Of a stretch of 59,036 nt of DNA, positions 4,042 through 53,704 are shown one piece after another. Below the pieces are notes generated by a model, which saw only the letters and a list, made by a program, of their open reading frames with translations, was not told where the DNA came from and did not search any database. A program made the position numbers and the translations under genes. Numbering within the stretch: the first letter of the stretch is position 1; the number at the start of each line of letters is the position of its first letter. Origin of the DNA: a virus (Duplodnaviria > Caudoviricetes); IMG/VR virus record IMGVR_UViG_3300032258_000001, positions 1 to 59,036 of that record; one strand, given 5' to 3'.

Positions 4042-4418
4042 AGATCAACCCTCTTTATGTTTGCGAGCAGCATGCCATCACTGTCCTTCTCATCGTCTGA
4101 GCTGCCTTCGTAAGTGGCTCGTTCGAGATAGATGATATAGTTACGCACATGGTTGAGTCTTGGATTAGTGGCGCTGTAGTTGTCCCTGGCAATGGACATC
4201 AGCAGATTGGAGCGCCTGCTGGCCGCCTGTATCGATGGGCGGATGTTATCGTCGGCGGCGTCGGTGACCTCCTTGTTCGTGAGGTCCACCACGTCCTGCA
4301 CCTTCTCTACCGTAATCTCCTCTGCAGGTGCATACGGCGTATCCTTGTCGGTTCCCAAGCAGGCATCTATTGTGGCCTGGAAGGACTCCTTGATGGAGTC
4401 ATATATCTTATCAAGCAT
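4038..4418 (-). CDS. hypothetical protein
   Basis: 126 aa ORF overlapping both neighbours in the operon. Confidence 0.55.
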   Translation of the reverse strand: MLDKIYDSIKESFQATIDACLGTDKDTPYAPAEEITVEKVQDVVDLTNKEVTDAADDNIRPSIQAASRRSNLLMSIARDNYSATNPRLNHVRNYIIYLERATYEGSSDDEKDSDGMLLANIKRVDL

Positions 4419-5190
4419 TGAGCTCCTCCCCTTCCTCTATCTTGGCGAGGATCTTGTTGATGCGCTTACTCACCGCCGGAGCGCTGATCTTGAGCTTCTT
4501 GGCAATGTCTCCCTTGGACAGCTTCTCGGAGCCACCATACCCCGTGCTGTATTCGTAGACCTTCTTGTCGATCGGGTCCAGCTCGAAGTAGACATAGTCA
4601 AGCCACATATCATAAGCTGACCTCTTGTTGTCGCCCTTGAGCAATAAGTCACCCTCCTCTCCCGTACTCCGTGACTGGGCGGAGGTTGGCTTGTACTGAC
4701 GGATACGCTGTATCTGCTTGGGTGAAAACTTGCTGCGGTCAGCCAGCTCATGCAGGTTAGGCTCGCGGTCGAATTCCGCCATGAACTCCTCTTGCACCTG
4801 GTTCAGGTGCGCCCGCTCCATCTGCACGTTCTCTGGGATGTGCATGACGTTGGAGCGTTCGTTGCGTATCCTGGTCAGCTTGTGCAGGCTGTTGCGGACA
4901 TGTGTGCGCTTGGAGGCACCTTTCTCTTCGTCGTAGTCCTCAAGTGCCTTGAGAGCCACCAGGTTGGCCTGCGTGCGCAAAGTCTCCGCCGCGCTACCGC
5001 CATAGTTACGCAAAGACGCGTCAATATCGGACTTGAGCTCTCCCAGAACCTTGCCCGCGTTGGCCGGGGTAGGCTTGGCTTTCCAGGCACTATAGGAAGC
5101 ATCCAGTGAGTTTGTGCTGACCGGCTTGCCTTCCTTATTCTTGTCTAGGAGCTTGTCCTTCTTTGCCCAGGGGCTCTTTATTTCGCTCAT
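4411..5190 (-). CDS. sigma70-family RNA polymerase sigma factor (regions 2, 3, 4; FliA/SigF-like size)
   Basis: Region 2 'ANLVALKALEDYDEEKGASKRTHV'; region 2.4/3 'SNVMHIPE...REPNLHELA'; region 4 HTH 'LDPIDKKVYEYSTG...LSKGDIAKKLKISAPAVSKRINKILAKI'. Confidence 0.85.
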   Translation of the reverse strand: MSEIKSPWAKKDKLLDKNKEGKPVSTNSLDASYSAWKAKPTPANAGKVLGELKSDIDASLRNYGGSAAETLRTQANLVALKALEDYDEEKGASKRTHVRNSLHKLTRIRNERSNVMHIPENVQMERAHLNQVQEEFMAEFDREPNLHELADRSKFSPKQIQRIRQYKPTSAQSRSTGEEGDLLLKGDNKRSAYDMWLDYVYFELDPIDKKVYEYSTGYGGSEKLSKGDIAKKLKISAPAVSKRINKILAKIEEGEELNA

Positions 5191-7435: not shown

Positions 7436-7932
7436 CTGAAAGCTCCTTGTATCGTCAGCGTGTACCGGAAAACGTCAAAATTGTTGTCCCCAACCATCTT
7501 GTGGGGCACCTGGGACAGCCCTGTCAGCACACCCTCGAAGACGACCTTGTCGAAGGTGACCTTGATCTTGGTTACGCCGTTCTTGTAGCGCTTGCTCCCG
7601 GCATGGCGGTTTCTATAGAGCTGCGCCAGGGTATCCTCCGATACGCCGTTCTTGCCTTCCTTGATGCCAGGGCAGGCTTCCGGAGGCAGCGCAATGCACA
7701 CAAGCTGCATAGGCTGCACCTTCTGCCCGAAGGAGGTTATCAACATGTCATCGTCGAATGTCTTGTCGATCTGGACGTCGGAAGCTGCCTGCGTGGTCTG
7801 GCTGAGCAAGTGGAACACGCCAGCCATGTTGCGTAACAGGCTGCCCTGGTACCCAATCTCTATCTTTACCGGTCGGCGCCTGTTGTAGTCGGCGGTCTTA
7901 CCGAACACCGTGTTGGGAAAAGGATCTGGCAT
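7432..7932 (-). CDS. putative tail tube initiator (gp48/gp54-like)
   Basis: 166 aa directly after the tape measure gene; 'ITSFGQKVQPMQL', 'VVFEGVLTGLS...FRYTLTI' beta-strand pattern of tube-fold proteins. Confidence 0.45.
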   Translation of the reverse strand: MPDPFPNTVFGKTADYNRRRPVKIEIGYQGSLLRNMAGVFHLLSQTTQAASDVQIDKTFDDDMLITSFGQKVQPMQLVCIALPPEACPGIKEGKNGVSEDTLAQLYRNRHAGSKRYKNGVTKIKVTFDKVVFEGVLTGLSQVPHKMVGDNNFDVFRYTLTIQGAFR

Positions 7933-26119: not shown

Positions 26120-26941
26120 CTATGAGTTTAAGTAAGGTGGTGTTGTTTTGTACGGGTGGCCACCTGGAAGGTTTGCGTCCAGGCCCCACTTGTGGGCAAG
26201 GTAGCCTTCAACCTTTTGGCGCGTCGCATCATCAGCCTGATTAAGAACTACCATCTCGCCAAGATTGGTTACTATCTTAGAATAGTAAAAACCATCAACA
26301 TCACGATAATAGGCTCCGACTCTAAACGTGTCTTCCACGACATTAACCGGCCTCGACGAGAAAAATATTCTGGTAAATTCCGTTCCGTTCTCGAATATCT
26401 TCGCATCTGTAATATCGGCAGAAGCGGCTCTTTGACTAGAGTAGAGATAGCCTTCCTCAGCCCCGGGAATCGTAAGAACCGGATCATAGTAAACGTAGGT
26501 TGAGTAGTAATACCGAAGGCCGCTGTTCGAAGTCGCTCCCATAACAACTCCGCCAGGAGCCTGCTGATCATCACCTAGCTGGCATATCGTCCTGGGGCCT
26601 GTCTGCGCCGGACCTTTCGTGAGAGCCGCAACTACTGTAAGAGCGTTGTCCCCGGTAAGCCCGAACCCACTCATTTCGAGATAGTTGGCACCGTTGAAAT
26701 ATAAGGCATTCTTGCCTCCTAAAACAACTGTTTTGTTAGCCAGGGGTTGGAGTCCGCCACCCACTTGAGCCAAGTGTCGATCGTTTCCACTCTTGTCGTC
26801 CCATTGGGATACGAATCCGCCGGTTTCAACGATAGTAGAGAGGTCGTCTGCATCGTACCATGCATGGGTCGCCATTACAGCTGGAGTCCACAGGAACGGC
26901 TTTCGTGCGTTATTACTACTGTCTACTATATTCGTGCTCAT
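26120..26941 (-). CDS. LamG/concanavalin-like receptor-binding domain protein (1 repeat)
   Basis: 'AWYDADD...VSQWDDKSGN...KVEGYLAHKWGL..LPGGHPYK'. Confidence 0.7.
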   Translation of the reverse strand: MSTNIVDSSNNARKPFLWTPAVMATHAWYDADDLSTIVETGGFVSQWDDKSGNDRHLAQVGGGLQPLANKTVVLGGKNALYFNGANYLEMSGFGLTGDNALTVVAALTKGPAQTGPRTICQLGDDQQAPGGVVMGATSNSGLRYYYSTYVYYDPVLTIPGAEEGYLYSSQRAASADITDAKIFENGTEFTRIFFSSRPVNVVEDTFRVGAYYRDVDGFYYSKIVTNLGEMVVLNQADDATRQKVEGYLAHKWGLDANLPGGHPYKTTPPYLNS

Positions 26942-27141
26942 GATCCGATCCTCGTGATGCGTTCCACCTTGACGTTGTCAACGACGGCACTGTCGGTAGC
27001 GCCGGCGATGGCCACGACGATGTCGTATCCGGCCTTGGCGGCGTCAAACCAGGCCGCTGTTGTGATTTCAGCAGGTGTCCAGATCGGTGTATTACGCCTG
27101 ACTCCAGGTAAACTATCATGCTTTATTATGCTCTTGCTCAT
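26938..27141 (-). pseudogene. chimeric deletion remnant of fibre-cluster genes
   Basis: 67 aa; N half 'WTPAEITTAAWFDAA' is the start of the LamG-like repeat; C half 'DIVVAIAGATDSAVVDNVKVERI' matches the end of ORF 33193..33828 ('DLAVVIDGATGYGVVDNVKLERI'). Confidence 0.6.
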
Positions 27142-27150
27142 CGTAAACTC

Positions 27151-33191: not shown

Positions 33192-33192
33192 A

Positions 33193-33828
33193 TTAGCCGA
33201 TCCTCTCAAGTTTGACGTTATCCACGACACCGTAGCCAGTAGCTCCATCAATAACGACGGCAAGGTCATTTCCGACTAATGCCGCATCCGTAACAGGATC
33301 AGTCTCATAAGTACCTACAAAAGTCTGTAGTTCACCTGTATCTGTCACCGTACCGCTTAGTGTTATAATCACATACGGATTAAACGCACTTGCCCCTGCC
33401 GCAAAGTCCTGCCTATCGAAGAGAGCGGGCAAGGCACAGAGATGAACTTCATATATTCCTCCTGCTTCACCATAACCAAATGCCGAGATATGACGATTAT
33501 AACCAATATCAACGGTGAGTTGATACTTAACGGTGTTGACATTTATATCACCGATCACACCGTCGGCAGTACAAGCTCCGCTATTGGTATACAACATACC
33601 GAGGGCTTGTTCATTCCCGACTTGTGCAGTTACCCAGTCCCCGCCATCTTTGTTGATCATCCCAAAGCGACCTGCACCAAAGCCAGTATCAGCACCAAGC
33701 CAGTTGCCATTATCGGGTAATTGACCTTCGACATAGCCACTTATCACTGGGGACTCGAAGTCCTCAGTAAACAGCACGGCGGGAACGAGTAGCCGCTTAC
33801 CAGTAGGAATGATCAGGTTAGTACTCAT
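33193..33828 (-). CDS. putative carbohydrate-binding jelly-roll protein
   Basis: 211 aa; 'LFTEDFESP' start and 'VDNVKL' end typical of CBM-like beta-sandwiches. Confidence 0.5.
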   Translation of the reverse strand: MSTNLIIPTGKRLLVPAVLFTEDFESPVISGYVEGQLPDNGNWLGADTGFGAGRFGMINKDGGDWVTAQVGNEQALGMLYTNSGACTADGVIGDINVNTVKYQLTVDIGYNRHISAFGYGEAGGIYEVHLCALPALFDRQDFAAGASAFNPYVIITLSGTVTDTGELQTFVGTYETDPVTDAALVGNDLAVVIDGATGYGVVDNVKLERIG

Positions 33829-35750: not shown

Positions 35751-36725
35751 CTAGAGTGCCAGTCCGGTGCGCCAGTTGATGGGGCTGCCGGCGAACTCGA
35801 CGCAGGCGACTGCGGCGACGTTGGCAACCGTGGCACCAACACACTCGTAAGCGTAGAAGCTCATGATGAAGTCTTCGTGCTTGGTGGACATGCAGATGTT
35901 GTCCAGTACGAAGAAGTCACCGAGATACTTCGGCGCTGCGAACATGTACATTTCGTAGTCCGCGACGAGGTTGTTCTTGATGGTGATGTTCCACTTCAGA
36001 CCCATGATCTGACGCTCGGTGAAACCGTTGACGAACATGTCTTCGGCCAAGTCACCACCGATCGCGGTGCGGTCCAGAGCAACAACGTCCCAGATGGTGA
36101 TGTTGTTGATGAGCGCTGCGGCCGGGTTCAGACGACGGTTCGTGGTGGGGAGACCACGCATCGCGTTGGCGAGGTTGGGGCGATCAATCGCACCACCTTC
36201 GATGTACTGACACGCGCCAAGGGCTGTGTTGACAGTGTTCTGACCACCGGAGTCGGTCTTGACGATGGTGTCAACCACGCTCATGAACTTCCGGTCTTCC
36301 TCTTCAAGGATGTCCTTGAGGATGAAGTCGTTGAAGATCTGGCGGATGTCCATGTCGTACGTGAGCAACTCGTTGACGTCGGAGACGTAACGACGGCTCA
36401 TGATACGGTCGAACATGACGCGGTACCGGGGTGCGGTCAGGTTGCTGTCCATGGGGGAAGTTCCGAACGGCACGGTGTAGGCGCCAGCGGAATTCGGTTC
36501 CATGTCCTTTACGATGACGGGCAAGGGAGTGTCCACCTGCTTGTCGAGGTCAGCGGGAGTGACGTCGGCAACGTCGTAGAACTTACGAGCGAAACCTTCT
36601 TCACGCTGTCTCAAGCGCAGGTAGTTGTTGACCTTGTCCTCAGCCTGTTTGCGGATGCCGCTGTCTTGGGAGGTGAGTCCGTTGACGACGGATTCGTTCA
36701 TCATTTTGACTTCAGTCGGATTCAT
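35751..36725 (-). CDS. major capsid protein (probable HK97 fold)
   Basis: 324 aa; protease-scaffold-decoration-capsid gene order, strong codon bias, followed by a terminator. Confidence 0.75.
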   Translation of the reverse strand: MNPTEVKMMNESVVNGLTSQDSGIRKQAEDKVNNYLRLRQREEGFARKFYDVADVTPADLDKQVDTPLPVIVKDMEPNSAGAYTVPFGTSPMDSNLTAPRYRVMFDRIMSRRYVSDVNELLTYDMDIRQIFNDFILKDILEEEDRKFMSVVDTIVKTDSGGQNTVNTALGACQYIEGGAIDRPNLANAMRGLPTTNRRLNPAAALINNITIWDVVALDRTAIGGDLAEDMFVNGFTERQIMGLKWNITIKNNLVADYEMYMFAAPKYLGDFFVLDNICMSTKHEDFIMSFYAYECVGATVANVAAVACVEFAGSPINWRTGLAL

Positions 36726-41765: not shown

Positions 41766-42592
41766 TTCTTGGGTTCCTCGTCTTCGAATTTCCGACTCGT
41801 AATCTGTTCTGCTTCCTGTATCAAATCTGATCTGGGCGGCTCAATGGCATGCCCAATAGCCTCACTGACGCCTGCCGCGTCTGCCGAATTGTCTGCCTGG
41901 CCTTCGGCATCCGCCTTGTCCCACGTCGATGTGACGGAGATGGCAGAAGTGCCGGCCCCATCAATTAACTTAGCATAAGTATGGCTTGATTTCAAAACTG
42001 TCTTGACGTGTTCGCTCACTCCCATCTGCCTGACCCAGTTCCTAAGCTCCGGGACTAGAGCGCATCCATCTATGGCATACTGCGTGAGATATTTGGTTCC
42101 GCCGTGATACGCAACCACCTTCCACATGTACGCCGAGTCGAACTTTATATTGTCCGATATATACTTGTTGGGGACGAAAAGATTACGCTGCACCCAAAAA
42201 GGCCTGTTGACACATTCCTGGACATCATAGAACAGATGAGAATACATATGGATAGTCTCCACCGTGACCAATGGATTGACCTGGGCGACGAAAAAGTCAT
42301 GTGGGGCATTCGGGTCGAGCAACGCCGCCTCCATAGTGTCCCGCATACCACCAGCCGATACATCCTCGTACAGCCTGAGAGCCAGAGTGGCCGCCTTGGT
42401 AGTCTCATACGCCATCAGAGCATCCGGGTCAACCCTATACCTGCCGCTCCTCATCCTCACTACACGCTTAAGAAGGACTATATAAGGGTCTTTGGACGGC
42501 CTGTAGATGGGCAGGCCGGCTTCTTCACGCTCAATCTCCTTGAGCGCGATGCCGTACCGCCAATCAGGGGTGTATGTCAGTGGATCAAGCAA
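41762..42592 (-). CDS. hypothetical protein
   Basis: 276 aa coupled ORF in the head operon. Confidence 0.6.
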   Translation of the reverse strand: MLDPLTYTPDWRYGIALKEIEREEAGLPIYRPSKDPYIVLLKRVVRMRSGRYRVDPDALMAYETTKAATLALRLYEDVSAGGMRDTMEAALLDPNAPHDFFVAQVNPLVTVETIHMYSHLFYDVQECVNRPFWVQRNLFVPNKYISDNIKFDSAYMWKVVAYHGGTKYLTQYAIDGCALVPELRNWVRQMGVSEHVKTVLKSSHTYAKLIDGAGTSAISVTSTWDKADAEGQADNSADAAGVSEAIGHAIEPPRSDLIQEAEQITSRKFEDEEPKK

Positions 42593-44774
42593 AATTCTCG
42601 GTCAACTCGTCGTTGAAGAGGTTGCTGTCTTCGCCGCTGCTCGTGTTGTGCAGGAACAGCGTCAGTTCGGAAACGTTCTGGAAGTTGTCGCGGAGGCTGT
42701 CCTCCAGTTCGCTCATCTTCTCGTGGCCATACTGGTCCTTGAACTGGTTGTAATGCCAGTAGAACATGAACAGGATGCGGCCGATGCGGTCCATGGCCAG
42801 CATGAGATCCTGCAGGTAGTCTTCCACCATACGGGACGGGCTACCGGAAGATGCGAGCGACTTCAGCACGCTGACGTCCATGACGTCCTTGACACCCTTG
42901 TCGCTGGCGTCGACGACCTCGTCCACCTCTTCGGTTGCCATCTCCGGGTCCATGTACTCGCTTTCCTCATATGGCGTGGACTCCTGGAATCCTACCGAAG
43001 GCTCCTCATCGTGGCTGTCGGGCCACTTCGGATCGGACGCAGCGTACTTGACCAGGAAGGTTTCGCGCGAAGGCTTGCCTACGCTCGCTTCCTTGTTGAT
43101 GATCATGCGGGCGTCGGCGGCGGAGATTCCGTGATCCTTGACCAGCTTGATCAGGGCGGCCTGCTTGCTGAGCATGCGCTCCCTACCGAACTTGCCGTCG
43201 ATCATGTAGTCGACGCCATCGGTCTGGACGGTTAATGAACGCCAACCTGCAGTCTTGATGATCTTGTGCTTGATGGTCTCCAAGTCGCCGACCGGCATTT
43301 CGCCGCCCCAGCACTTGCAGGCCACGATGCGTGCACCTTCCGGAATGTAAAGATGGGTACCCTTGCGGCAGACCATGCCGGGTTTACCGGTCAGCTCCAC
43401 GATACCATCATCATCACACCATTCATCTGTGTCGCTCGGCAGCTTTGCCCCGGCGATCTTGTTGCCGACAAGCTTGCCATTGTTCATTTCGAAGCGTTCA
43501 TAGTTGCCCTTCGAGTCGATGGCCAGGCAGCTGTGCCATTTGTAGGAGTCCGAGCCCATATCGTAGGCTTCCTCAGTGTCTCTGTCAGCGTCCTTACGGA
43601 ATTTGGACATAAGGCTGGTAGGCTTGATGCCGATGCCGCTGATGTCGGTGTCTTCCCGGGCTTCCAGGTTACGACACAGGATGGGCCGATCGCAGACGTG
43701 CGCTTCGTTCGGCTTGTTCAGGTCGATGACCATATAGCTGAACTCTTTGATGTCCGCGCTCTTGTGCTCCGGGTTCCTGGTGAGCTTCGACCAGCTGGTC
43801 TTACCCTTCGGGGCTACAATAATGTAGCACTTCTTGAAGCTACCATCAGCCATGAGGACTTCAAAGTAGCCATTCTTGCCTGGTGTAGCCAAGCTGCCAC
43901 TGGCCTGCTTGTCGACGAAGACGGTGGAGGTCTTCTTCCGTCCATCGACTACATAAAGGCCATCCCGCAGGACGACTTCCTTAGCCTTGTCATCGAGTTT
44001 CTTGACGGCATCGGTGTCTTCCAGGGTGATGATCTGCAGCTGGTTCTCGTTGTGGACTGCATCCACCATGAGGGGATACGTCCCGTCCTGTACTTCGCTA
44101 CCATCGGGGGGAGGCTGATTGTCCTTGACGGATTCGGCTATCTTGCGGATGTCCTCCGGTTCATAGAACTTGAGTATTGCGTTGGCGAAGTCCGGGTTGG
44201 TGTTCAGGGTCCTGAAGAAGCTGACTGCCGCATGTTTTCCGAGGCGCGGTAGCCACTCCCTTAGGTCAAATCTGTCTTTGCCGCGTTCATCGTAGACGAG
44301 GACCATGTCCGCGATGTCGTCGTGGATTCCTTCTTTGTCGATGAAGCTCGCGCCCTTGAACATGATGCTCTTGCTCTTGGAATCACGGCGGAGGCTGACG
44401 GCGTCTGCCCGCTTGGGCTTGCTCTTCGGCATGTCTCCGGACTTCTCGCCCAGCAGTGCCGTACGGTTCTGGCGGATGTAGGAGACCCATGTGTCCTTGG
44501 CCGGTACGAACTGGCTCTTCTCCGGCAGATACATCATGTCGTATCCACGGATGCGGCCATTGAGGAAGAACGCCGGGACATAGATCCACTGCTCGCCTAC
44601 CTTATAGACCATAACACCCATACCACGTGTGCCATCGTCGTCGCGTTCGACCAGCTGGAAGCCGACCTTGTATTCGTTGAGAGACGGCAGCCGTTGAGTG
44701 ATCTCGGCATCCGCCACGTTTGCAAGCTTGACTTCAAAATCGTCAGCAGCAGTCTTCCTGATAACACCTATCAT
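42585..44774 (-). CDS. putative internal head protein
   Basis: 729 aa, ATGA-coupled to the RNAP beta'-C gene; about ten KxA motifs. Confidence 0.55.
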   Translation of the reverse strand: MIGVIRKTAADDFEVKLANVADAEITQRLPSLNEYKVGFQLVERDDDGTRGMGVMVYKVGEQWIYVPAFFLNGRIRGYDMMYLPEKSQFVPAKDTWVSYIRQNRTALLGEKSGDMPKSKPKRADAVSLRRDSKSKSIMFKGASFIDKEGIHDDIADMVLVYDERGKDRFDLREWLPRLGKHAAVSFFRTLNTNPDFANAILKFYEPEDIRKIAESVKDNQPPPDGSEVQDGTYPLMVDAVHNENQLQIITLEDTDAVKKLDDKAKEVVLRDGLYVVDGRKKTSTVFVDKQASGSLATPGKNGYFEVLMADGSFKKCYIIVAPKGKTSWSKLTRNPEHKSADIKEFSYMVIDLNKPNEAHVCDRPILCRNLEAREDTDISGIGIKPTSLMSKFRKDADRDTEEAYDMGSDSYKWHSCLAIDSKGNYERFEMNNGKLVGNKIAGAKLPSDTDEWCDDDGIVELTGKPGMVCRKGTHLYIPEGARIVACKCWGGEMPVGDLETIKHKIIKTAGWRSLTVQTDGVDYMIDGKFGRERMLSKQAALIKLVKDHGISAADARMIINKEASVGKPSRETFLVKYAASDPKWPDSHDEEPSVGFQESTPYEESEYMDPEMATEEVDEVVDASDKGVKDVMDVSVLKSLASSGSPSRMVEDYLQDLMLAMDRIGRILFMFYWHYNQFKDQYGHEKMSELEDSLRDNFQNVSELTLFLHNTSSGEDSNLFNDELTENFA

Positions 44775-46603
44775 TGTTGGACCTCTTGTATGTTTACTAG
44801 CCTCGGAAAATACGATGTGCTTTGTTTTTCGCTCATGGCGCCGCGCTCGGCCGCCCGAGTCATTACTCGCTTGAGATTCTCTCCTGCGAGTCGTGTCAAC
44901 AGATCCTTATCCGTCGACATGAAATCCTGCGCTCGGGTAACTTCGGGCTCAAACGGCGGCGGCTCCGAGTGAGCCAGCACCGTCTTGACGCCTGCCTTCT
45001 GCAATCGCTTGGCAATACGCGGAGTCACGCGCGTGCCTATCGTATAGTGCAGATAGGGTTTCTCTAAGTATAATTTATTCGCTGTAGTGACACTTTTCAA
45101 GGCAGCCCCCTCACGAGGCTTCCAGTTCGACGCTATCGTGGAGTAGTCCACGACGTCGTCCGGCAGGTATCCTTCAACCCCGTCCGGGTCGGTCACGCGC
45201 ACCCTGCCGATAAACTGTCTGGCCAGATATTCAAGGTTACGGCGGTTGGTGCTCGCCCCTGAATTCTTGAGAATCTCACGGAGATGCTTGAGGAAGTAGA
45301 CTCGTCCCTCTCCGATTCCTTTATGCTTAACGACCTCGGCAGCGTTCATCATCCCATCGGAGATCATGTCGCCGGCCTCAACTACGTCGCCCTGCCTGAC
45401 TTTGACCTCGTAGCCTTGTGGGACATAGTGCCGGTCCGGGCCTATCATGACGTAATGGCCGCCTTGCGGCGCTTTCTTGATCCCGGCTACCTTGCCGTCA
45501 CGCTGTGCGACGGTGGCTGCCCCTGGAAACTCCTTCGGCACCTGAAAAAACTTGTTGACGGCCGAAAAGCCGGTCTCTATCCTGGAGGTCTCACCGACTT
45601 CTCCACCTACATGCTTGGAGGAGATGGCACTCTGCGTCAGAGGTTCTATGAACGTACGTGCGCCGGTAACCCCGACAGCGTCTCCTATGTTCGGCAACGC
45701 GCCGGTCTCTCGGACTCCGGCGCACTTGGCACAGATGCCCTCCTTAGCCTGGCACGTCAATGCGCTGCGACCAACGATCTCCCTGTCCTTAACGAGCGCG
45801 ATATTTTCATCGTCTAAAATAGTTCCGGCCTTGAGCTGCCCGGTATCCTTGGCCAGGACGGTACCGACATTGTCCTGGTCGTCTCCGGCCAGCTCGATAC
45901 CTTCGGTCGTGCCACAATCCTCTTCGGTGACGACACTCCTGTGTCCTACATTGGTGATCTGTTTACCGAAGTAGCCGCTGTCCGCCGTAGCGAACTGCAC
46001 ATCCACATAACCCTTCCGGGCTCCATGGCTCGCAGCCCAATATGCCAGTGGGCTCACGCCCTCAGCGTATCCCTCGAGGCTCGGGTAGGGGACTGGGCGT
46101 CCCTTGGAGTCGGCACTGATCAGGTTACCTAGTAGAAGCTGACGCAGCTGGAAAGGCTTGCCACGGCTGCCACTGTTGATCTGAAGTGCGAACGATCCGT
46201 CGCGCTCGGTTACAGCATTGAGCAGATCCTGGTCGATGGTCTTGCTAAAGTCCGTGACCATTTTCATGACGGTTTTGGTCTTCTGCTCCGTGGACATAAG
46301 GGGGCTATCATACACCTGGGCGACTTTGGCCTTCAGCTCGTCACGCCGCTTGGCGATCTCAGGCGGGACCTTGAAGTCATCGGGGCGTAGGGAGGCTACC
46401 CGCCCATACAAGGATACGGTGTTGACTGCAAGCGTGTTAAGCTTGTGCAACACATCCTCATACTTCTCCGGGTCCTCCTGTGCGAGCCTAGTGTAAAAAG
46501 CCTCGATCTCCTTCTTTCCCATGACCCCTTTGAATTGGTCCCGGTACTTTTCGGGGATCGCGGCCTTCACCTTCTCGCGGCCCAATGTCGTGACTATCGC
46601 CAT
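44771..46603 (-). CDS. rpoC: phage RNA polymerase beta' subunit, C-terminal part
   Basis: 'TTLGR', 'INSGSRG', bridge helix 'SHGARKGYVDVQFATADSGY', 'VTEEDCGT', Zn site 'RSALTC...GICAKCAG', trigger region 'GDAVGV...EPLTQSAISSKHVGG'. Confidence 0.92.
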   Translation of the reverse strand: MAIVTTLGREKVKAAIPEKYRDQFKGVMGKKEIEAFYTRLAQEDPEKYEDVLHKLNTLAVNTVSLYGRVASLRPDDFKVPPEIAKRRDELKAKVAQVYDSPLMSTEQKTKTVMKMVTDFSKTIDQDLLNAVTERDGSFALQINSGSRGKPFQLRQLLLGNLISADSKGRPVPYPSLEGYAEGVSPLAYWAASHGARKGYVDVQFATADSGYFGKQITNVGHRSVVTEEDCGTTEGIELAGDDQDNVGTVLAKDTGQLKAGTILDDENIALVKDREIVGRSALTCQAKEGICAKCAGVRETGALPNIGDAVGVTGARTFIEPLTQSAISSKHVGGEVGETSRIETGFSAVNKFFQVPKEFPGAATVAQRDGKVAGIKKAPQGGHYVMIGPDRHYVPQGYEVKVRQGDVVEAGDMISDGMMNAAEVVKHKGIGEGRVYFLKHLREILKNSGASTNRRNLEYLARQFIGRVRVTDPDGVEGYLPDDVVDYSTIASNWKPREGAALKSVTTANKLYLEKPYLHYTIGTRVTPRIAKRLQKAGVKTVLAHSEPPPFEPEVTRAQDFMSTDKDLLTRLAGENLKRVMTRAAERGAMSEKQSTSYFPRLVNIQEVQQ

Positions 46604-46613
46604 TTAGTATATC

Positions 46614-47438
46614 CTACTTCTTTTTGGGGTCTATTACGCCTCTGCGCCCAAGCCAGCCACGGGCGTTTAGCTTCTGCAGCGTATTGTAGCCTGTCTTTGC
46701 GGTAGGTCCTGCAGCCAGCCCACCAAGAAGGAGTCCCAGGCCGGTAGCGCTGCCCCACCTCCCGGCACTGGTCAGGAAGGATCGTGAGGCATTTCTATGC
46801 GCCATATTTTCCAGAACTTCTCTCGCTGGATCGACGCTTGTTGACGTGCTTCTGCGAAGACCCTCAAGAGCATCCTCAAGTGCACCAGCCGAGTATTGAT
46901 TGCTTAAGCGCGTTGATATAGCAGCGAGATCTGGAGAAGTGCCGCCACTGGCTATCTCAGCTCGAATTGCTCTTAGGGCATTGCGTGCCTCCTCGGTGCG
47001 CGCGTTTGCTACAAGCTTTTTACCTAACCTGTGTCCACCAAAAGTCCCGACAGCACTACCACCAAGGACAGTGACTGGGTCGGTAATTCCTTCCTTGAAG
47101 GATTTCACGACATTCTCAGCATGCGATCTGTTGGCGAGCTCCAACTGCCTGGCTATTGCCTCTTGCTCTTCACGTTCCTTCTTGCTCAGCTCTCCAGCAC
47201 CTGCGTCCTGTAGTGCCTGTGCACCGATAGTCCCTACTGCAGCACCGGCACCTGCACCCATGAGACCAGGTATGAAACCCTTGAGGCCTAGGATATAGCG
47301 CGTACCAAGATAGCCTGCAGCTCCGCCGCCGAGTGCTCCGATCAACCGAGCCATCTGCTTCTTATTCATACTGGTCGGCTTTTCGGGGTCGTTGTCGTTC
47401 TTATTTTTTATAGCCTGCTTATAAAGCATGTATTCCAT
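46614..47438 (-). CDS. glycine-zipper hydrophobic protein (putative virion/ejection protein)
   Basis: 274 aa; 'LIGALGGGAAGYLG', 'GLMGAGAGAAVGTIGA', 'GLGLLLGGLAAG'; N-terminal LYKQA. Confidence 0.55.
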   Translation of the reverse strand: MEYMLYKQAIKNKNDNDPEKPTSMNKKQMARLIGALGGGAAGYLGTRYILGLKGFIPGLMGAGAGAAVGTIGAQALQDAGAGELSKKEREEQEAIARQLELANRSHAENVVKSFKEGITDPVTVLGGSAVGTFGGHRLGKKLVANARTEEARNALRAIRAEIASGGTSPDLAAISTRLSNQYSAGALEDALEGLRRSTSTSVDPAREVLENMAHRNASRSFLTSAGRWGSATGLGLLLGGLAAGPTAKTGYNTLQKLNARGWLGRRGVIDPKKK

Positions 47439-47449
47439 CGGGAGACTCC

Positions 47450-48232
47450 TTATTTACCGGCCACCTTCGTCCTGCTCCAATGATCCATGGCCATCTTCGG
47501 CATGGTCTCCGACGGGAACTCCCCAGGAGGCATACCGCTCTCCATGGCAGCCATCATCGGGTCCATTCCGCCCATGGCCGGGTCTTCCATGCCTGCGGCA
47601 ACGGCTGCTATATCTTCCGGAGCTGCCGCTTCGCCGCCAATAGAGGTATCACCCCCTACCCCGACGTCACCAGCCGGAAGCTGTACGCCAGTGGCGGCTG
47701 CCAACGCTTGCAGCGACTCCTCGATGGTCTGCATCTTGGCCATGATGTCCTTGTTCGTAACACGTTTGGACTCGGACTCCGGTGCGCCTTCGCCGCCTTC
47801 ACCCTGTAGCTCACTGATGACGAGCTTGAGATCTTCAAGATTCAAGGTGACGGGGGTACCTGCAGCTGCAGGGTCTTCCATCGGGGGAGCGCCGCCGGCC
47901 AGGGCGTCTTCGAGCGGAGGCATGCCTCCCATCATGGCGGGGTCCATTCCCATCATGGCCGGGTCCATCGGGGGTGCGCCGCCCATCATGGCGGGGTCCA
48001 TCGGGGGTGCGCCACCCATCATGGCGGGGTCCATCGGGGGTGCGCCACCCATCATGGCGGGGTCCATTCCCATCATGGCGGGGTCCATTGGAGGAGCTCC
48101 GCCGGCCATAGCCGGGTCCATGGGGGCTGCGCCCTGCTGGGCCGCCGCTGCCTGGGCCTCTGGGGTCATCGGGTTGAAAGCTTCTTTCGAGATGTTTTCT
48201 CGGGCCTGTTTCAGCAACTTATGGTCTAGCAT
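47450..48232 (-). CDS. low-complexity Met/Pro/Gly repeat protein
   Basis: 260 aa; tandem MDPAMMG(GAPP) units; KQA/KEA at the N-terminus, KMA/KVA at the C-terminus. Confidence 0.7.
   Translation of the reverse strand: MLDHKLLKQARENISKEAFNPMTPEAQAAAAQQGAAPMDPAMAGGAPPMDPAMMGMDPAMMGGAPPMDPAMMGGAPPMDPAMMGGAPPMDPAMMGMDPAMMGGMPPLEDALAGGAPPMEDPAAAGTPVTLNLEDLKLVISELQGEGGEGAPESESKRVTNKDIMAKMQTIEESLQALAAATGVQLPAGDVGVGGDTSIGGEAAAPEDIAAVAAGMEDPAMGGMDPMMAAMESGMPPGEFPSETMPKMAMDHWSRTKVAGK
47880..48130 (-). repeat. coding tandem repeat of 33-bp and 21-bp units
   Basis: Repeated catcatggcggggtccatcgggggtgcgccaccc and catcatggcggggtccattcc on the plus strand. Confidence 0.85.
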
Positions 48233-48262
48233 GATTCCTCCTGTGATTAAATCTTTGTGTTT

Positions 48263-48292
48263 AATATACCAGCTATGTCACTTATTTTCCAC
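48263..48292 (-). promoter_or_regulatory. candidate phage promoter GTGGAAA-N17-TATATT
   Basis: Minus strand gTGGAAA ataagtgacatagctgg TATATTaaa spanning the RNAP stop codon, about 30 nt before ATG 48232. Confidence 0.65.
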
Positions 48293-51200
48293 TATTACAA
48301 TAGGCGTGTCGATGTCTATCTCACCCTTATTGAAGGCTTCCTGAGCCTCTTTCACTGTTCTGAACGTCTTCTTGGGTTTCTCCTTCTTGGCTCTGGTAGC
48401 TAGATAGAGGCCCTGCACAAACTCCTGACTGGGAGTATAATTGGCCCTGAAGCTCCGTGCGCTAAGAAGGTTGCTTTTCGGCATCATCTTCTCTCTCGCC
48501 TCTTCGACCGCATTCTTACTGACAGGAACATAATAAGTGACAGTGTCACCATCAAAATCCATGCCATACGGACCGACAATAGAGGGGCTAACCTGCACGG
48601 TATCGCCCTTGACCAGCACCGGGTCGAATGCCATGACGCTGTACTTATGCAAGCTGGGGGCACGGTTCACTATGACGGGACGCTGCTTGACGGCATCCTG
48701 TAGAAACTTCTGCGCACGATCATCACGATCCTTGACCATTTTTATGGCTGCTGTGGGCCCGTAACCATGTCGTACCATAGCGCGTACCACAAAAGGCTCG
48801 TAGACATCCCATGCCTGCTTGATCGGAATGCCCATCTGGTTGAGCTTCAGCGCAGGATTGGGGGTAACGACGCCACGACCAGCTACATCCATGGACGTGC
48901 CCAGTATACGGCGATGGTATGCTCCCCGCTTAGCGCTACCCTTACCAAATACCCACTTGAGCAGCCCTTGGACGTTCTTCTCTTCCAGCTTAGCATCGTC
49001 CGGGTCGTATAGGCCAGTAAGGGCTTTGTATGACTTATAGATATTGCCGCGCGCACCCTTGAGCATCTCGTCTGGGAGCCTATCCTTGGCGCTGCGCAGG
49101 TCGTCCCTGGCGAATACCAGGCTACGATACATCATATTGGCGTCCGCACTGACATTGACACCTTCGAGCTGGGTGACCGGGCGGAACTTGGGGGGCAGCA
49201 CTGGGATACGCTCCATCATGAAGTCCTTGGGGTGCACTCCCTGCTCCTCCATGCTCTTCAACGCTCTATAACGCTTGAGGGCCTTGTCCTTCTTGCTTGG
49301 CTTACTATGCTTCAGCTCCTGCAGTGCACTCTTGACCTCGTTTTTAAGATCCAGCTTCCCGAGGGCCGCCTTTATGGCATTACCACCGCTCAGACCATTG
49401 AGCTCTTCCTCACCGTTCATAATGGCGTTGAATCTCTTCTGGGTCATGTTGAGTATATTGCTCATCGACCGCTCCATCACCGGGTTGGGCATAGGCTCGT
49501 CAAGCTGGATGTATGCCCAGTCGTCACCGTTGTGGCCAAACAGTTTGGGGTCGAACAAGCCGCCGTCGATCGGCTTCATGGTCTTCTGGTCGAACGTCCT
49601 GGCTATCTGCAGCTCATGGCCCTTGCTCAGCTTCCTGGCCTGGTCGTTGGTCATACCGAAAAAGTTGACGCGGTCACTGTTCTCATCGACATTGATTCCT
49701 GCTGCCTGCAGGTGCTTGTAAAACTTCTCATGGACAAGGCTCTTGCCAGGCACCTTTGGCATACGCCCCAGTCGGAAGTCACGCCAAAACTCGTCATTAG
49801 ACTGCCCTCTTACCAGCTTGGCGTCCTTGAGAACCTGCATGGCGCCATGGCTTACCACGGCGGACGTGTGTAGCCCGCCCATCTGCTTGGCTCCAGCAGG
49901 TCCACCACGAAGCGGCGTTTCTTCCGCCGTAACGCCGCCGACGCCGCGCGCGCCTATCTTGTCCTCGGCTACATGCATCATACGATGGAAGAATGCGTCG
50001 CCAGTCAGCACTTCAGGTATCTTGCGGCCGGTCTGTGGGTCGTATAGATCTTCGTTCGGAGAAATTCCGGAATCCCGTAACTTCTGCTCGTAATACTTGA
50101 TGAGGTCCTTGTCCTCGAAGCCTTCCACAGCCTCCGGCTTGCCTGTGTGCCTAGCCAGCTTGCCGGCCATTACTTCGACCACCTGCATGGGGTTGACACG
50201 GCCTATGATACCAAGGCTGTTGGCCACGACGTCCAAAGGATTGCCGTCCTTATCCAGCGGCATCTCGCTATCAGGTAGCACATTCACTACGCCTTTGGCT
50301 GCATACCTGTTGGAGTTACCCGACCATACTGTCTTCCCATTACGCCTAGTGTAGAGGATGTGGTTACGTTCCAGCTCTGGGCAATAAACGTTACCTACGT
50401 AATCAACCCACTCGTCGGTCTGGGCCGATTGCTTCTTAACGTGGCTATGATTGATTGTAGGCTGGTTCTTCTGCCGGTATGTAGATACTATATAAGATGG
50501 CCTTATCGTCTGTACGGTCTTGCCGTTTATGACGACCGGGTGTTTAGGTATAGCTTTGCGCTTGATTGTTGCTGACATGCCGAGGTGTAAGCATACCCTC
50601 TGCCAGTCTCCCGCTAGACGGTATGACGTGGTATGGATACCATGCCCAGACTGAGTCCTGTACCCATCACCGAACATAAACCACTCGTAGAACACCGCAA
50701 TGCGCTCAGGAGGCAGTTCCAGGATATTCTCTGGTATATACTTCTCGTATGACTTGCCAAACTGTCGTAGGTATGTGGCCCAGTGCTTCGAGTATACCCT
50801 CACCTTATCGCCCGTCGTGGACCACTTAAGTCCAGCCGCATCAAATGCATCCCGGACTATCTGAGGGTTGTCCCCTTTGGCAACGCATATATCGAATGCG
50901 TAGTCAGATGTCTTATCCTGCCATACTATATTACCATCAGACAGGAAAAGACCCATAACCATTAAATAGGTGTCAATCGCTACTTCTGGCCCTTCCACCA
51001 ATGTCGGGTGGCAGTCGTTCTTTCCATGGGGCAATGTCTTATAGACATCGGGAAGCTTAAATGTATTAGCGTCTTGGCCTAGCCAGGTGCCGGTCTTCAG
51101 AAGCCTATACCGGCTCATCCCGTGTAACCTAGAGGACGGTATGAGTTCATAAGAGTCTTTGTGCCTTAGCTTGGCATAATGCTTATGGTCCGCTGTCGTG

Positions 51201-53704
51201 CAGAAGTTCACCTGGGTTGTATTGACCATATGCATACGCCCTTCGTGGGCATATTCATGCAGGTAACTCACTTCAACGTACTCGATCTCGTGTGTATCGG
51301 GATTAAGGGAAGCCACCTTGTCCCCGGACATAAGATCGGATACGACGCACCAACCACGCTCGGTCAGGACTTCGGTCTCTTCGTCATAGCACATCTTGTC
51401 CCCGTTCTTCATCGGGATATTGGCGCGGACGTAGACCGTGGCATGCTTATCACCGACATCCACATCGACGACCTTTCCTTCATACTTGTGCTCCCAGGTC
51501 TGCGTGAGGGCGGTCTTCGTCTTGCGGCCCATGCTGCCTGGTTTAGGGTCGTTCTGCCGTACGGCGACGATGAGGGGATCTCCCTCCCTGACGACCGTTC
51601 CTCGCTTGACGATACCTTTCTCGCCGATAGTGCCCATCTGCTCCTTGGTGAACTTTCCGGAGAACTTACCCATGAACGCCTTCTTGTCGAAGTCGGTATT
51701 GCTGGACACCGGTATGCGGCTCTTGTACATCTTCTCGGCAGCCATCTTCTTCGCAGCGCTCGCACTTATGATGATGGCATCCTCGAAGTTCATGCCCTTC
51801 CAAGGCATGTAGGCTACACGCAGATTCCTACCCTGGGCCGCGACACCCTCATCGTCAGTGTAGTTAGTCGTGCTGAGTACCTGGCCCGGTTTGATCTCGT
51901 CACCGACCTTTACCTGCGGAATACTGCGCATATAACCCTTCTGGTTGAAGGGATGGTTGTCGTAAAGCTCATATACCTGGGTGCCTTTGACCCCACGAAC
52001 GACGATCTTGTCGGCGTCTATGCTGGCCACCCTGCCCCCATCGGAGGCTTTGTTGACGCCGAACATTTCGCCAAGCTTGGCTTCTACCGTGGTGTCCCGG
52101 TGCTTCGCCCGGAACAATGGGGCCTCCCGGTGTGCCAGCGGCATGCTCTGTCCGCCGTACTTACCACCCATATGCAGCCTGTTCGCCATGATGCCGTTCT
52201 TTCCTGGTACGGCGTTCGCCCCAAAGCTGTACATGTTCGACTCATCCGGAATGTAGAAGTTCACTTCCTTCTTGGGCACGATACCGATGCCTCTGCTTCC
52301 ACGGAAGGCCGGTACGAACTTGCCGTTGGATTGCATCTCTTTCTTGGTAGCGACTTTGCTGCGGGCCGCCGTCAGACTGTCCACCCACCGCTCTTCGCCC
52401 GTACGCGCGTCTATCATCCTGGTGTAGAGTCTACCATCGTCACCCTTGCGGACGCCCTGGTTAAGATACATATCCAATCCGACACGGGTACTTTCGACTG
52501 ATCGTACCGGATCGATGAAGCCCGCGAAGCTGTCTTGTACGGCGCGGGTTTCCGAAGGTGCCGTACGTCCACTGGCTATGCCACCTTCACCGATTCGGGT
52601 AATCTTGGTGGATAGGTCGATGGCGGAGAATGGGCTGCTGCCATCTATATAGCCCGCATGCTTGGACTCGTTAAATATTGCGTCCACGTGCTTATTGAGC
52701 GGAGCTGGGGGAATATCCTTGAAATCGCCGCTGCGACTGATCCGCCACAGTAAGTTTCTGGCAAGCCCTCCGCCGTCCCTGATGATCCTCTCCGCGAAAT
52801 AGTCCGCCGGGCCGTCTATCTTCTGGAACTCAAGGCCATCGCGATAGTCGGCTTCCTCTTCGCCCTTGCTCAGCCTTATGATCTTGGCACTGGACTCGAG
52901 CAGCGTCTCGGGGGTGATCTTCTTATGGGCGCGCCCAAGCGTCATCTCCGTCGCCACGGGGTCCAGTTCGGACTTCTGCAGCTGCTCGAGCAGCTCGTCA
53001 TAGTGGCTCGCGTAATCGGCGGCTACCTTGGAGACTCCGCCTTGAAATCTGTGTACCGGATTCGGGACGTCACTGGCCTGCCTGTTGACATCCAACAGCT
53101 CCTTGCCCCAACTCTTCTTGATCTGGTCGTCCGTCACTCCTGCCCGTTTAAGAAGAGGATACAGTTTGTAGCCTCTGGTGCCCTTGCGCACGCGCATGAT
53201 ACCCGTCTTGGGGTCCAGCTCTATCTTGAACTGACCACCAGTCCCCTGCTTTGGATTGACATGGGCCTCCACAAGCCCGTTATCCTTCTTGCGGGAGTAT
53301 ACACCCGGAGTCAGGCGGAACATATAGTTGATGGCCTTCTCGCTTCCGTTGCGAATAAACGTGCCCCTGCGGGTCATGTAGGGTACGTTCATGAGTATCC
53401 GAGGCTGGCTCTTCTTGACCTCCCCGGTCTCCTTGTTCGTCAGCACCCAGCGTCCACGAAGCTTCTTAGTGATATTGGCGTTCTTGAGCGTGGCGTTCTT
53501 TTCATCTCGGAGTGTAGGCTCCTTATCATCGTAAGTGAGCTCGTCGACACTGAGGACATAGCGCTCGTTCTCCACCGGAAACCGCTGAAGAAGCGCGGCC
53601 TTGGTGTTGTTGAACAAGCGCTCACGAACGGCCCTATAATCCGTGGGATCGTAAGGCTCTGACTTGACCGGGTCAAGCAGTCTTGTCTGGAAGGCTTCAG
53701 GCAT
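48278..53704 (-). CDS. rpoBC: phage RNA polymerase beta / beta'-N fusion protein, intein-containing
   Basis: Beta motifs 'GFIDPVRSVESTRVGL', 'ANRLHMG', 'GRNLRVAYMPWKGMNFEDAI', 'GDKM|SNRYAAKGVV', 'HVAEDKIGARG'; beta' motifs 'KPIDGGLFDPKLFG', 'PVLPPKFRP', 'NRAPSLH', catalytic 'GMDFDGD'. Confidence 0.95.
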   Translation of the reverse strand: MPEAFQTRLLDPVKSEPYDPTDYRAVRERLFNNTKAALLQRFPVENERYVLSVDELTYDDKEPTLRDEKNATLKNANITKKLRGRWVLTNKETGEVKKSQPRILMNVPYMTRRGTFIRNGSEKAINYMFRLTPGVYSRKKDNGLVEAHVNPKQGTGGQFKIELDPKTGIMRVRKGTRGYKLYPLLKRAGVTDDQIKKSWGKELLDVNRQASDVPNPVHRFQGGVSKVAADYASHYDELLEQLQKSELDPVATEMTLGRAHKKITPETLLESSAKIIRLSKGEEEADYRDGLEFQKIDGPADYFAERIIRDGGGLARNLLWRISRSGDFKDIPPAPLNKHVDAIFNESKHAGYIDGSSPFSAIDLSTKITRIGEGGIASGRTAPSETRAVQDSFAGFIDPVRSVESTRVGLDMYLNQGVRKGDDGRLYTRMIDARTGEERWVDSLTAARSKVATKKEMQSNGKFVPAFRGSRGIGIVPKKEVNFYIPDESNMYSFGANAVPGKNGIMANRLHMGGKYGGQSMPLAHREAPLFRAKHRDTTVEAKLGEMFGVNKASDGGRVASIDADKIVVRGVKGTQVYELYDNHPFNQKGYMRSIPQVKVGDEIKPGQVLSTTNYTDDEGVAAQGRNLRVAYMPWKGMNFEDAIIISASAAKKMAAEKMYKSRIPVSSNTDFDKKAFMGKFSGKFTKEQMGTIGEKGIVKRGTVVREGDPLIVAVRQNDPKPGSMGRKTKTALTQTWEHKYEGKVVDVDVGDKHATVYVRANIPMKNGDKMCYDEETEVLTERGWCVVSDLMSGDKVASLNPDTHEIEYVEVSYLHEYAHEGRMHMVNTTQVNFCTTADHKHYAKLRHKDSYELIPSSRLHGMSRYRLLKTGTWLGQDANTFKLPDVYKTLPHGKNDCHPTLVEGPEVAIDTYLMVMGLFLSDGNIVWQDKTSDYAFDICVAKGDNPQIVRDAFDAAGLKWSTTGDKVRVYSKHWATYLRQFGKSYEKYIPENILELPPERIAVFYEWFMFGDGYRTQSGHGIHTTSYRLAGDWQRVCLHLGMSATIKRKAIPKHPVVINGKTVQTIRPSYIVSTYRQKNQPTINHSHVKKQSAQTDEWVDYVGNVYCPELERNHILYTRRNGKTVWSGNSNRYAAKGVVNVLPDSEMPLDKDGNPLDVVANSLGIIGRVNPMQVVEVMAGKLARHTGKPEAVEGFEDKDLIKYYEQKLRDSGISPNEDLYDPQTGRKIPEVLTGDAFFHRMMHVAEDKIGARGVGGVTAEETPLRGGPAGAKQMGGLHTSAVVSHGAMQVLKDAKLVRGQSNDEFWRDFRLGRMPKVPGKSLVHEKFYKHLQAAGINVDENSDRVNFFGMTNDQARKLSKGHELQIARTFDQKTMKPIDGGLFDPKLFGHNGDDWAYIQLDEPMPNPVMERSMSNILNMTQKRFNAIMNGEEELNGLSGGNAIKAALGKLDLKNEVKSALQELKHSKPSKKDKALKRYRALKSMEEQGVHPKDFMMERIPVLPPKFRPVTQLEGVNVSADANMMYRSLVFARDDLRSAKDRLPDEMLKGARGNIYKSYKALTGLYDPDDAKLEEKNVQGLLKWVFGKGSAKRGAYHRRILGTSMDVAGRGVVTPNPALKLNQMGIPIKQAWDVYEPFVVRAMVRHGYGPTAAIKMVKDRDDRAQKFLQDAVKQRPVIVNRAPSLHKYSVMAFDPVLVKGDTVQVSPSIVGPYGMDFDGDTVTYYVPVSKNAVEEAREKMMPKSNLLSARSFRANYTPSQEFVQGLYLATRAKKEKPKKTFRTVKEAQEAFNKGEIDIDTPIVIVENK
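50315..51391 (-). mobile_element. intein with LAGLIDADG homing endonuclease (359 aa)
   Basis: Starts CYDEETEVLT (block A), 'TADHKHY' (block B), 'MGLFLSDG' and 'WFMFGDG' (LAGLIDADG), ends 'VYCPELERNHILYTRRNGKTVWSGN' before Ser+1; removal restores GDKM-SNRYAAKG. Confidence 0.93.

Follow-up and report, generated by a model that had tools for sequence, protein, structure and literature searches.

A two-chain bacterial-type RNA polymerase core encoded by a phage, with beta fused to the front of beta-prime

The standard picture of bacterial-type RNA polymerase is an alpha2-beta-beta'-omega complex, in which alpha is the assembly platform. Rearrangements of its two large subunits are known from cells. 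In Wolbachia, beta is joined head-to-tail with beta-prime in one frame, and a beta::beta-prime fusion is also found in Helicobacter; in both, beta-prime stays whole and alpha and omega are retained. In cyanobacteria, beta-prime is divided into gamma and beta-prime (rpoC1/rpoC2), with the cut placed after the catalytic barrel. Several phage systems have also been described. According to the available text of PMC7598289, the polymerases of phiKZ and AR9 are phage-encoded, have no alpha or omega, and have beta-prime cut just after the catalytic double-psi barrel, with one form packaged and injected; beta is also split, nothing is fused, each genome holds two sets and no sigma, and the sequences are far more diverged than the enzyme considered here. 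The metagenomic mReC group (PMC7481178; Weinheimer and Aylward 2020) is described in the accessible part of that paper as caudoviral contigs whose bacterial-like beta and beta-prime fall outside the cellular clades. Salmonella phage Arash (OQ632216.1; PMC10585845) encodes two chains, Gp206 (1525 amino acids, aa) and Gp216 (606 aa), and a sigma factor, Gp10; its record labels both chains "subunit beta," PMC10585845 calls them beta and beta-prime, and neither a fusion nor a split is mentioned in the available text of that paper. Here, we describe a 59,036-base stretch of phage DNA (the window), which is the entire linear IMG/VR virus record IMGVR_UViG_3300032258_000001, ~30% complete by CheckV. 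It encodes the phage's own bacterial-type RNA polymerase core as two chains, and we consider this identity and the anatomy set out below to be practically certain. The parts of the two open reading frames (ORFs) are as follows.

48278..53704, minus strand: precursor ORF, 1808 aa; beta (with an intein) in frame with the N-terminal part of beta-prime (chain 1)
51392..53704, minus strand: N-extein, aa 1-771; the N-terminal two thirds of beta, ending GDKM
50315..51391, minus strand: intein, aa 772-1130, 359 aa; Cys1, block B TADH, two LAGLIDADG motifs, C-terminal WSGN, Ser+1
48281..50314, minus strand: C-extein, aa 1131-1808; the C-terminal third of beta, then the N-terminal part of beta-prime via DFDGD to TPIVIVENK
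49649..49699, minus strand: beta/beta-prime junction, about aa 1336-1352, GINVDENSDRVNFFGMT; conserved in the lineage
48545..48559, minus strand: DFDGD catalytic metal-binding motif, aa 1716-1720
44771..46603, minus strand: beta-prime C-terminal chain, 610 aa, beginning at the TTLGR motif; Rpb1_5 (chain 2)

Both ORFs had been reported in a preliminary description of this DNA and were present with these coordinates and lengths (1808 and 610 aa). Its reading of the longer ORF as beta fused to the N-terminal part of beta-prime, with the DFDGD site, was confirmed by Pfam, by alignment to solved structures, and by the position of DFDGD at aa 1716. Pfam identified Rpb2_6 (PF00562; E 3.7e-41) for beta and, on the beta-prime side, Rpb1_1 (PF04997), Rpb1_2 (PF00623; E 3.1e-23), and the start only of Rpb1_3 (PF04983). 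Against solved structures, aa 88-715 aligned with Mycobacterium tuberculosis beta 133-800 (E 4e-38), aa 1132 to about 1352 with beta as far as residue 1155 of 1183, and aa 1421-1794 with Escherichia coli beta-prime 161-540 (E 6.9e-52). Chain 1 is the whole of beta plus the front of beta-prime, ending 88 residues beyond DFDGD. The 610-aa ORF matched Rpb1_5 (PF04998; E 1.1e-21) and, from its residues 3-5, aligned with beta-prime about 660-1185 of the solved structures. The hallmarks of bacterial-type beta (Rpb2 domain 6) and beta-prime (DFDGD with Rpb1 domains 1, 2, 3, and 5) were recovered across the two chains. That beta runs directly into beta-prime, as first described, holds for the fusion, which is in frame, but beta itself is interrupted at GDKM/SNRYAAKG by the 359-aa intein.

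The junction is compact. About 10 residues lead from the last beta motif, AAGINV, to the first beta-prime motif, FFGMTNDQARKLSKGHEL, which aligns with IALASPDMIRSWSFGEV in Salmonella, and the junction was kept in 16 of 16 relatives examined. In an alignment, the position of the N-terminal four-Cys zinc ribbon of beta-prime is a gap of ~37 columns in the window, in three related loci (L007, L014, and L068), and in Arash; a CxC...CxxC ribbon is present at the gapped columns in Salmonella and in Rhizobium phage RHph_Y65. Chain 2 carries a second four-Cys cluster (C230, C284, C291, and C294), in which each residue was kept in 75/82 homologues and which is a putative zinc-binding site.

The layout is shared by many phages. 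A close search yielded 2 loci, and a profile search of IMG/VR yielded 125 confirmed stretches, of which the best 80 were kept; the kept IMG/VR loci together with Arash, D181, and D69 gave a set of 84. All matches to chain 1 lay in one open frame in 78/84 loci, the six exceptions being D181, L008, L010, L015, L070, and L071. Chain 2 was found downstream on the same strand, 0.8-6 kilobases (kb) away, in 69/84. Among the 15 other loci, 10 end at most 2.4 kb from the gene, and five (L074, L075, L078, L080, and L081) had no chain 2 within 4-10 kb. The Arash layout, with one frame running to ~90 residues past DFDGD and a separate TTxG chain of ~606 aa, was found in the window as well: the fusion junction, the cut point, and the chain ends agree, at ~30% identity, whereas Arash has no intein and nine genes between the chains instead of two. 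A protein search with chain 2, in which 8000 candidates were scored, gave 299 clusters at E <= 1e-10; among the 120 listed clusters, 100 were 523-636 aa long, 19 carried intein or endonuclease Pfam domains, and one (755 aa) was longer without a recorded domain of either type. An assembly error in the fusion or the split, which the preliminary description had named as grounds for abandoning its reading, was ruled out by this recurrence in Arash, D69, and 78/84 loci. That the locus reflects an assembly or frame error, or bacterial DNA miscalled as viral, is barely conceivable. Nothing was found in support of it, apart from the interruptions that 6/84 loci do show (endonuclease genes, an in-frame stop, and a frame change); the junction and cut are identical in complete genomes of cultured phages (Arash and D69), the neighboring genes are phage structural genes, and the tree described below sets the clade apart from 35 bacteria.

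Some of these interruptions were inspected individually. In Vibrio phage D181 (L002:10462-11410), a homing endonuclease gene splits the fused gene into frames of 533 and 1014 aa; the fused gene of its sister phage, D69, is uninterrupted. A 1.65-kb insert right after DFDGD in L008:13541-15195 is in frame to a TAA codon and resembles an intron or a degenerate intein. An identical in-frame TGA lies in the conserved beta motif SGRYG*GDKGVV of L070 (814-816) and L071 (5819-5821) and may reflect recoding, an error in sequencing, or a true interruption.

The preliminary description had beta-prime resume at TTLGR in the 610-aa ORF, beyond two unrelated genes. This was upheld by the N-terminus of chain 2 (MAIVTTLGRE), by its Rpb1_5 match, and by the intervening ORFs of 260 and 274 aa. 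Where the cut falls can be read from a further set of IMG/VR loci (L169-L246), 46/78 of which carry complete beta::beta-prime fusions as single ORFs of ~1950-2500 aa with a canonical NADFDGD (for example, L177:2860-9030); no uncut full fusion was found among the cultured phages of the phage collection. These enzymes show where the beta-prime cut was made, as they read through it, in single chains of 2050-2500 aa, as KGEIGKTDIIRV-GGA-ETTVGQ; in the window, chain 1 ends with KGEIDIDTPIVIVENK and chain 2 starts with MAIVTTLGRE. The commonest N-termini among 82 chain 2 homologues likewise lie just ahead of the TTxG motif. Judged from these sequences, the cut is clean, in a short loop, and without loss of sequence. 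It is not at the cyanobacterial position. The lineage profile aligned with E. coli beta-prime 160-551, ending 3 positions after 551, and it ended after residue 557 of the 624-aa cyanobacterial gamma, which puts the phage cut ~60 residues before the cyanobacterial one, with phage chain 1 ending at about gamma residue 560/624. The claim that phiKZ-like polymerases are split differently does not hold on the beta-prime side, which is described as cut just after the same domain (PMC7598289, available text). The window lineage departs from the phiKZ type in its unsplit beta, its single set, and its candidate sigma. No description of the fused-and-split layout was found in the literature as far as its available text goes, and the accessible parts of reviews from 2020, 2021, and 2026 do not mention it. 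What is new here is the beta intein at the GDK site, described below, and the uncut metagenomic fusions that map the cut.

The relation of the enzyme to other polymerases was determined with 418 residues around DFDGD taken from all loci, which gave 232 full-length rows (184 non-redundant), 91 of them sampled. The sampled rows were the window, 6 chosen and 14 random split-type sequences, 20 random full fusions, all 18 unfused phage sequences, and 35 bacteria. IQ-TREE was run in quick mode (LG+C20, 440 columns) with support from the Shimodaira-Hasegawa-like approximate likelihood ratio test (SH-aLRT) only; the root was not inferred, so the claim is limited to the window enzyme not being nested in any sampled bacterial group. 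The 35 bacteria, from at least 12 phyla, formed one clade (support 99) that also took in a single "viral" contig of probably bacterial origin. An mReC-type clade (support 99) was formed by 14 unfused phage sequences, among them L221, a match by metagenome id and length to a contig listed in PMC7481178. The 40 remaining phage rows, which are the fused enzymes, made up a third clade (support 99, branch length 0.76). Within it, the window and L007 grouped together (support 100) inside an 18-row split-type clade (support 99), and the full fusions were either sister to the split type or intermingled with it. Arash was placed on a long branch (1.86) among the full fusions, outside the window's subclade. 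Nesting in a bacterial clade, by which the preliminary description would have been overturned, was thus not observed; the enzyme lies in a separate phage clade (support 99) as against the 35 bacteria. Wolbachia grouped with Alphaproteobacteria, which makes its fusion an independent one. A single clade for all 20 split-type rows was rejected by the approximately unbiased (AU) test (p 4.4e-5), applied to a group that was named after the tree was seen and that includes long branches. We claim only so far that the split, or its reversal, was not a single clean event.

A suggestion that the window might belong to the polymerase-encoding lineage reported from metagenomes was not borne out. The mReC and fused enzymes fell in separate clades (support 99 each), and beta and a whole beta-prime are separate in mReC: of the ~104 phage rows in the table of PMC7481178, 89 were covered, and all 89 list a separate beta of 900-1563 aa and a whole beta-prime of 899-1391 aa. 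The main text of that paper does not contain the words "split," "intein," "sigma," or "virion," and uses "fused" for crAssphage only. Given the separate genes and the separate clade of mReC, the window lineage represents a different architecture in a different clade. For several mReC contigs, the table gives two polymerase sets, labeled a and b (e.g., 1364+1005 aa and 1000+902 aa; PMC7481178, accessible part), which recall the two sets of phiKZ-like phages.

The intein lies within the GDK...KG active-site motif of beta: the window reads GDKM, then 359 intein residues, then SNRYAAKG. The insert is absent from Arash gp206 and Vibrio phage D69, where the sequence GDK(V/I)-TGLHGNKG is uninterrupted. 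The signatures of a Class 1 intein were found, namely an N-terminal Cys, TADH, N359, S+1, a HINT fold, and two LAGLIDADG motifs (GLFLSDG and MFGDG); the Pfam LAGLIDADG_3 match to the 1808-aa ORF (E 0.0013) was under the family cut-off. A model built from 8 lineage inteins (predicted local distance difference test, pLDDT, 83; predicted template modeling score, pTM, 0.81) had as its top Foldseek matches the homing-endonuclease inteins TliVMA (E 3.7e-15), PI-SceI, and PI-PfuI, which share the HINT fold with an inserted LAGLIDADG domain, and the center of the model matched I-DmoI. The window intein differs from these in its penultimate residue, which is Gly instead of His, and in its host gene, a phage beta. 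Inteins of eukaryotic RPB2 genes also occupy a conserved motif of the second-largest polymerase subunit, according to the available text of PMC1635734, in which the string "GDK" was not found. Splicing at Cys772, Asn1130, and Ser1131 would yield an active mature chain 1 of 1449 aa, and the LAGLIDADG domain would let the intein home into intein-free alleles. Its distribution is patchy, being present in L006 (70% identity) and missing from L007 (72% identity), and the same GDK site is filled by a 353-aa intein in L009 and by a 150-aa mini-intein in L085 that is without exactly the central endonuclease part. At least four further intein sites were found in chain 1 of relatives (at least five Cys-type sites in total), one of them, in L009, immediately past DFDGD. 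Relatives with inteins in chain 1 or chain 2 include L009, L011, L029, L033-35, L041, L067, L084, and P0012. Inteins have settled unusually often in the polymerase genes of this lineage.

The subunit complement was assessed in Arash, D69, and three IMG/VR records that carry terminal repeats (195-224 kb), five complete genomes in all. Neither alpha (PF01000) nor omega (PF01192) was detected in any of them (0/5 each; controls, 14/14), and a canonical alpha2-beta-beta'-omega core, judged by encoded alpha and omega, was not found in these relatives. In the window, PF01000 gave no match. The preliminary statement that no alpha or omega gene is seen in the window was therefore supported for alpha, here and in the relatives, and for omega by a search run on the relatives, not on the window. 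The catalytic beta-prime domain occurred in one frame per genome, which gives one polymerase set in 5/5; Arash is like the other relatives in all these respects.

These negatives can be accommodated by a hybrid enzyme, in which the phage chains depend on a host alpha dimer, and perhaps omega, for assembly and the system falls short of self-sufficiency. Alpha is retained in cellular fused enzymes such as that of Wolbachia. The phage chains are clearly of bacterial type, being 26-33% identical to beta-prime of many phyla, and no substitute assembly subunit was identified in this analysis. We nevertheless find such a hybrid somewhat unlikely: both genes are missing from all five complete genomes, an injected enzyme would need to wait for host subunits, and the phiKZ/AR9 polymerases work without alpha or omega (PMC7598289, available text). 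Whether the polymerase would function without host alpha we judge to be evenly poised.

A conserved ORF of ~72-95 aa lies directly upstream of the beta-prime C-terminal gene in 65/84 loci (e.g., L014:15041-15289). It is missing from the window, L007, L009, L010, Arash, and D69 and, for that reason, was rejected as an obligatory omega-like subunit.

The phage sigma named in the preliminary description was recovered as a candidate sigma-70 family gene of the window.

4411..5190, minus strand: putative sigma-70 family protein, 259 aa; homologue of the virion-detected Arash gp10

The 259-aa ORF matched phrog_351 (E 6.5e-9) and the NCBIfam SigB/F/G model (E 1e-8, profile positions 30-224 of 227), the latter far below the curated cut-off. 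Sigma regions 2-4 were tentatively read by eye from motifs. Homologues were present in 5/5 relatives searched, which are 98-100% complete.

Residues of the rifampicin pocket were compared with Salmonella RpoB; changes at several of the positions concerned give rifampicin resistance in bacteria. By alignment, the window has G/D/L/K/T/D at positions 513/516/526/529/531/572, vs. Q513/D516/H526/R529/S531/I572 in Salmonella. With this pocket, the phage enzyme is predicted to be rifampicin-insensitive.

Evidence on packaging comes from the mass spectrometry of Arash virions (PMC10585845, available text). The fused chain, Gp206, was detected with 100% coverage, 128 unique peptides, and 3516 spectra, the highest of all proteins; the beta-prime C-terminal chain, Gp216, with 89% coverage, 40 unique peptides, and 1210 spectra; and the sigma, Gp10, with 100% coverage, 24 unique peptides, and 467 spectra. 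That Gp206 was covered in full speaks against cleavage of a large propeptide. The fused gene of Arash comes directly after the portal gene, and the polymerase genes lie between the portal and capsid genes. The earlier suggestion that a location among head genes points to a virion-packaged enzyme was supported as to location, since the window genes lie in a co-directional block with a capsid homologue; for packaging itself, the support is homology to Arash. We modestly favor packaging of the window enzyme, which would then probably be injected with the DNA.

Taken as a whole, the observations are probably best explained by a two-chain phage polymerase core that is spliced, packaged, and injected. 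Spliced chain 1, chain 2, and the phage sigma would form a working enzyme; the polymerase genes would be expressed together with the head genes; and the enzyme, as in Arash, would travel inside the capsid and be injected so that transcription can start. Several points weigh against this explanation. Packaging was seen in a relative of ~30% identity, and with the window at ~30% of its genome, statements on its own gene content rest on relatives. Lack of genes for alpha and omega is no proof that the enzyme does without these subunits, as host alpha could be recruited, and the sigma may serve the phage enzyme or the host polymerase. The beta motif after the intein reads RYAAKG in the window vs. 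RHGNKG in bacteria, and the penultimate intein residue is Gly rather than the usual His, a feature shared by 7/8 aligned lineage inteins.

The remaining objections concern the Arash particles and lead to an alternative in which the polymerase is not a virion protein. In this alternative, it transcribes middle and late genes, early genes are read by host polymerase redirected by the phage sigma, and the Arash particle signal is carry-over. Phage sigma factors usually redirect host polymerase. Among the 116 proteins of the Arash preparation were clear replication enzymes (DNA ligase, primase, uracil glycosylase, and ribonucleotide reductases), so carry-over of abundant non-structural proteins is possible, as the authors also point out (PMC10585845, available text). 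The counts, however, differ widely: Gp206 had more spectra than the capsid protein and 128 unique peptides, whereas the replication enzymes had 2-3, and the ligase, primase, and reductases as a group 2-11 (PMC10585845, available text). The position of the polymerase genes between portal and capsid in Arash, and in a gap-free head block in the window, also argues against a non-virion enzyme, as does the single polymerase set per genome, and we consider this alternative unlikely.

The spliced and packaged two-chain core can be extended to a stronger proposal, which we regard as tentative and on balance doubtful: a complete, self-sufficient holoenzyme, made of the two chains and their own sigma without alpha, omega, or the beta-prime zinc ribbon, would be packed and injected and, as the sole polymerase, would transcribe the entire genome without relying on the host and unaffected by rifampicin. 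If true, this would add a third, sigma-dependent type of virion polymerase to those of N4 and phiKZ. The lineage is widespread, with genomes of 175-225 kb, hundreds of metagenome protein clusters, a cultured Salmonella phage, and Vibrio phages. With just two chains, fused and divided at uncommon positions, it seems to operate a sigma-using enzyme. The lineage is a natural experiment on the minimal needs of a bacterial-type core and offers a tractable test of the delivery of a sigma holoenzyme through a phage tail.

Two genes separate the chains in the window.

47450..48232, minus strand: intervening gene 1, 260 aa; Met/Pro/Ala/Gly-rich with PPMDPAMMGG repeats
46614..47438, minus strand: intervening gene 2, 274 aa; Gly/Ala-rich, with hydrophobic glycine-zipper-like segments

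Met, Pro, Ala, and Gly make up 57% of the 260-aa protein, in which PPMDPAMMGG occurs in ~8 copies and which is predicted to be disordered (protein atlas model, pLDDT 0.42). Met/Pro-rich proteins of the same kind hold the same position in most loci. The 274-aa protein had no tblastn match in 84 related loci, and neither protein matched a Pfam, PHROG, or NCBIfam family. In the protein atlas, both gave viral hypotheticals only, below 0.9; for the 274-aa protein there was also a weak pointer to a glycine zipper (score 0.80). The beta-prime cut and the disordered Met/Pro-rich protein within it may help to pack the 230-kDa enzyme or to thread it through the tail. In Arash, a weak second match to chain 2 residues 225-310 was noted at 7557-7820 of the record (E 1.3e-4, 32% over 96 residues), far away from the polymerase genes.

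The polymerase genes lie in a co-directional head-gene block with virtually no intergenic space. All 49 gene-like ORFs of the window are on the minus strand, and its GC content is 0.50-0.62. Two neighbors serve as landmarks.

42585..44774, minus strand: 729-aa gene directly after the beta-prime C-terminal gene; its C-terminus matches Arash virion protein gp218
35751..36725, minus strand: major capsid protein candidate (HK97 fold), homologue of Arash gp226; marks the head module after the polymerase genes

The block continues from the polymerase genes to homologues of Arash gp218, gp222, and the capsid protein gp226, and the window and Arash have in common the order of homologues of gp10, gp13, gp206, gp216, gp218, gp222, and gp226. 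The 729-aa gene occupied the same place after the beta-prime C-terminal gene in 61/84 loci and was not beside any of the full fusions (0/46 loci), which indicates that this neighborhood is not common to those phages. The capsid candidate (35751..36725) had no Pfam match, whereas the capsid proteins of mReC match PF07068 (PMC7481178). Elsewhere in the window, three paralogous genes (26120-26941, 27151-29400, and 30504-33269) matched phrog_10356. The 209-base gap between the first two (26942-27150) starts with an ATG and, by eye, specifies an N-terminus resembling theirs, which would fit either a short ORF or the remnant of a gene.

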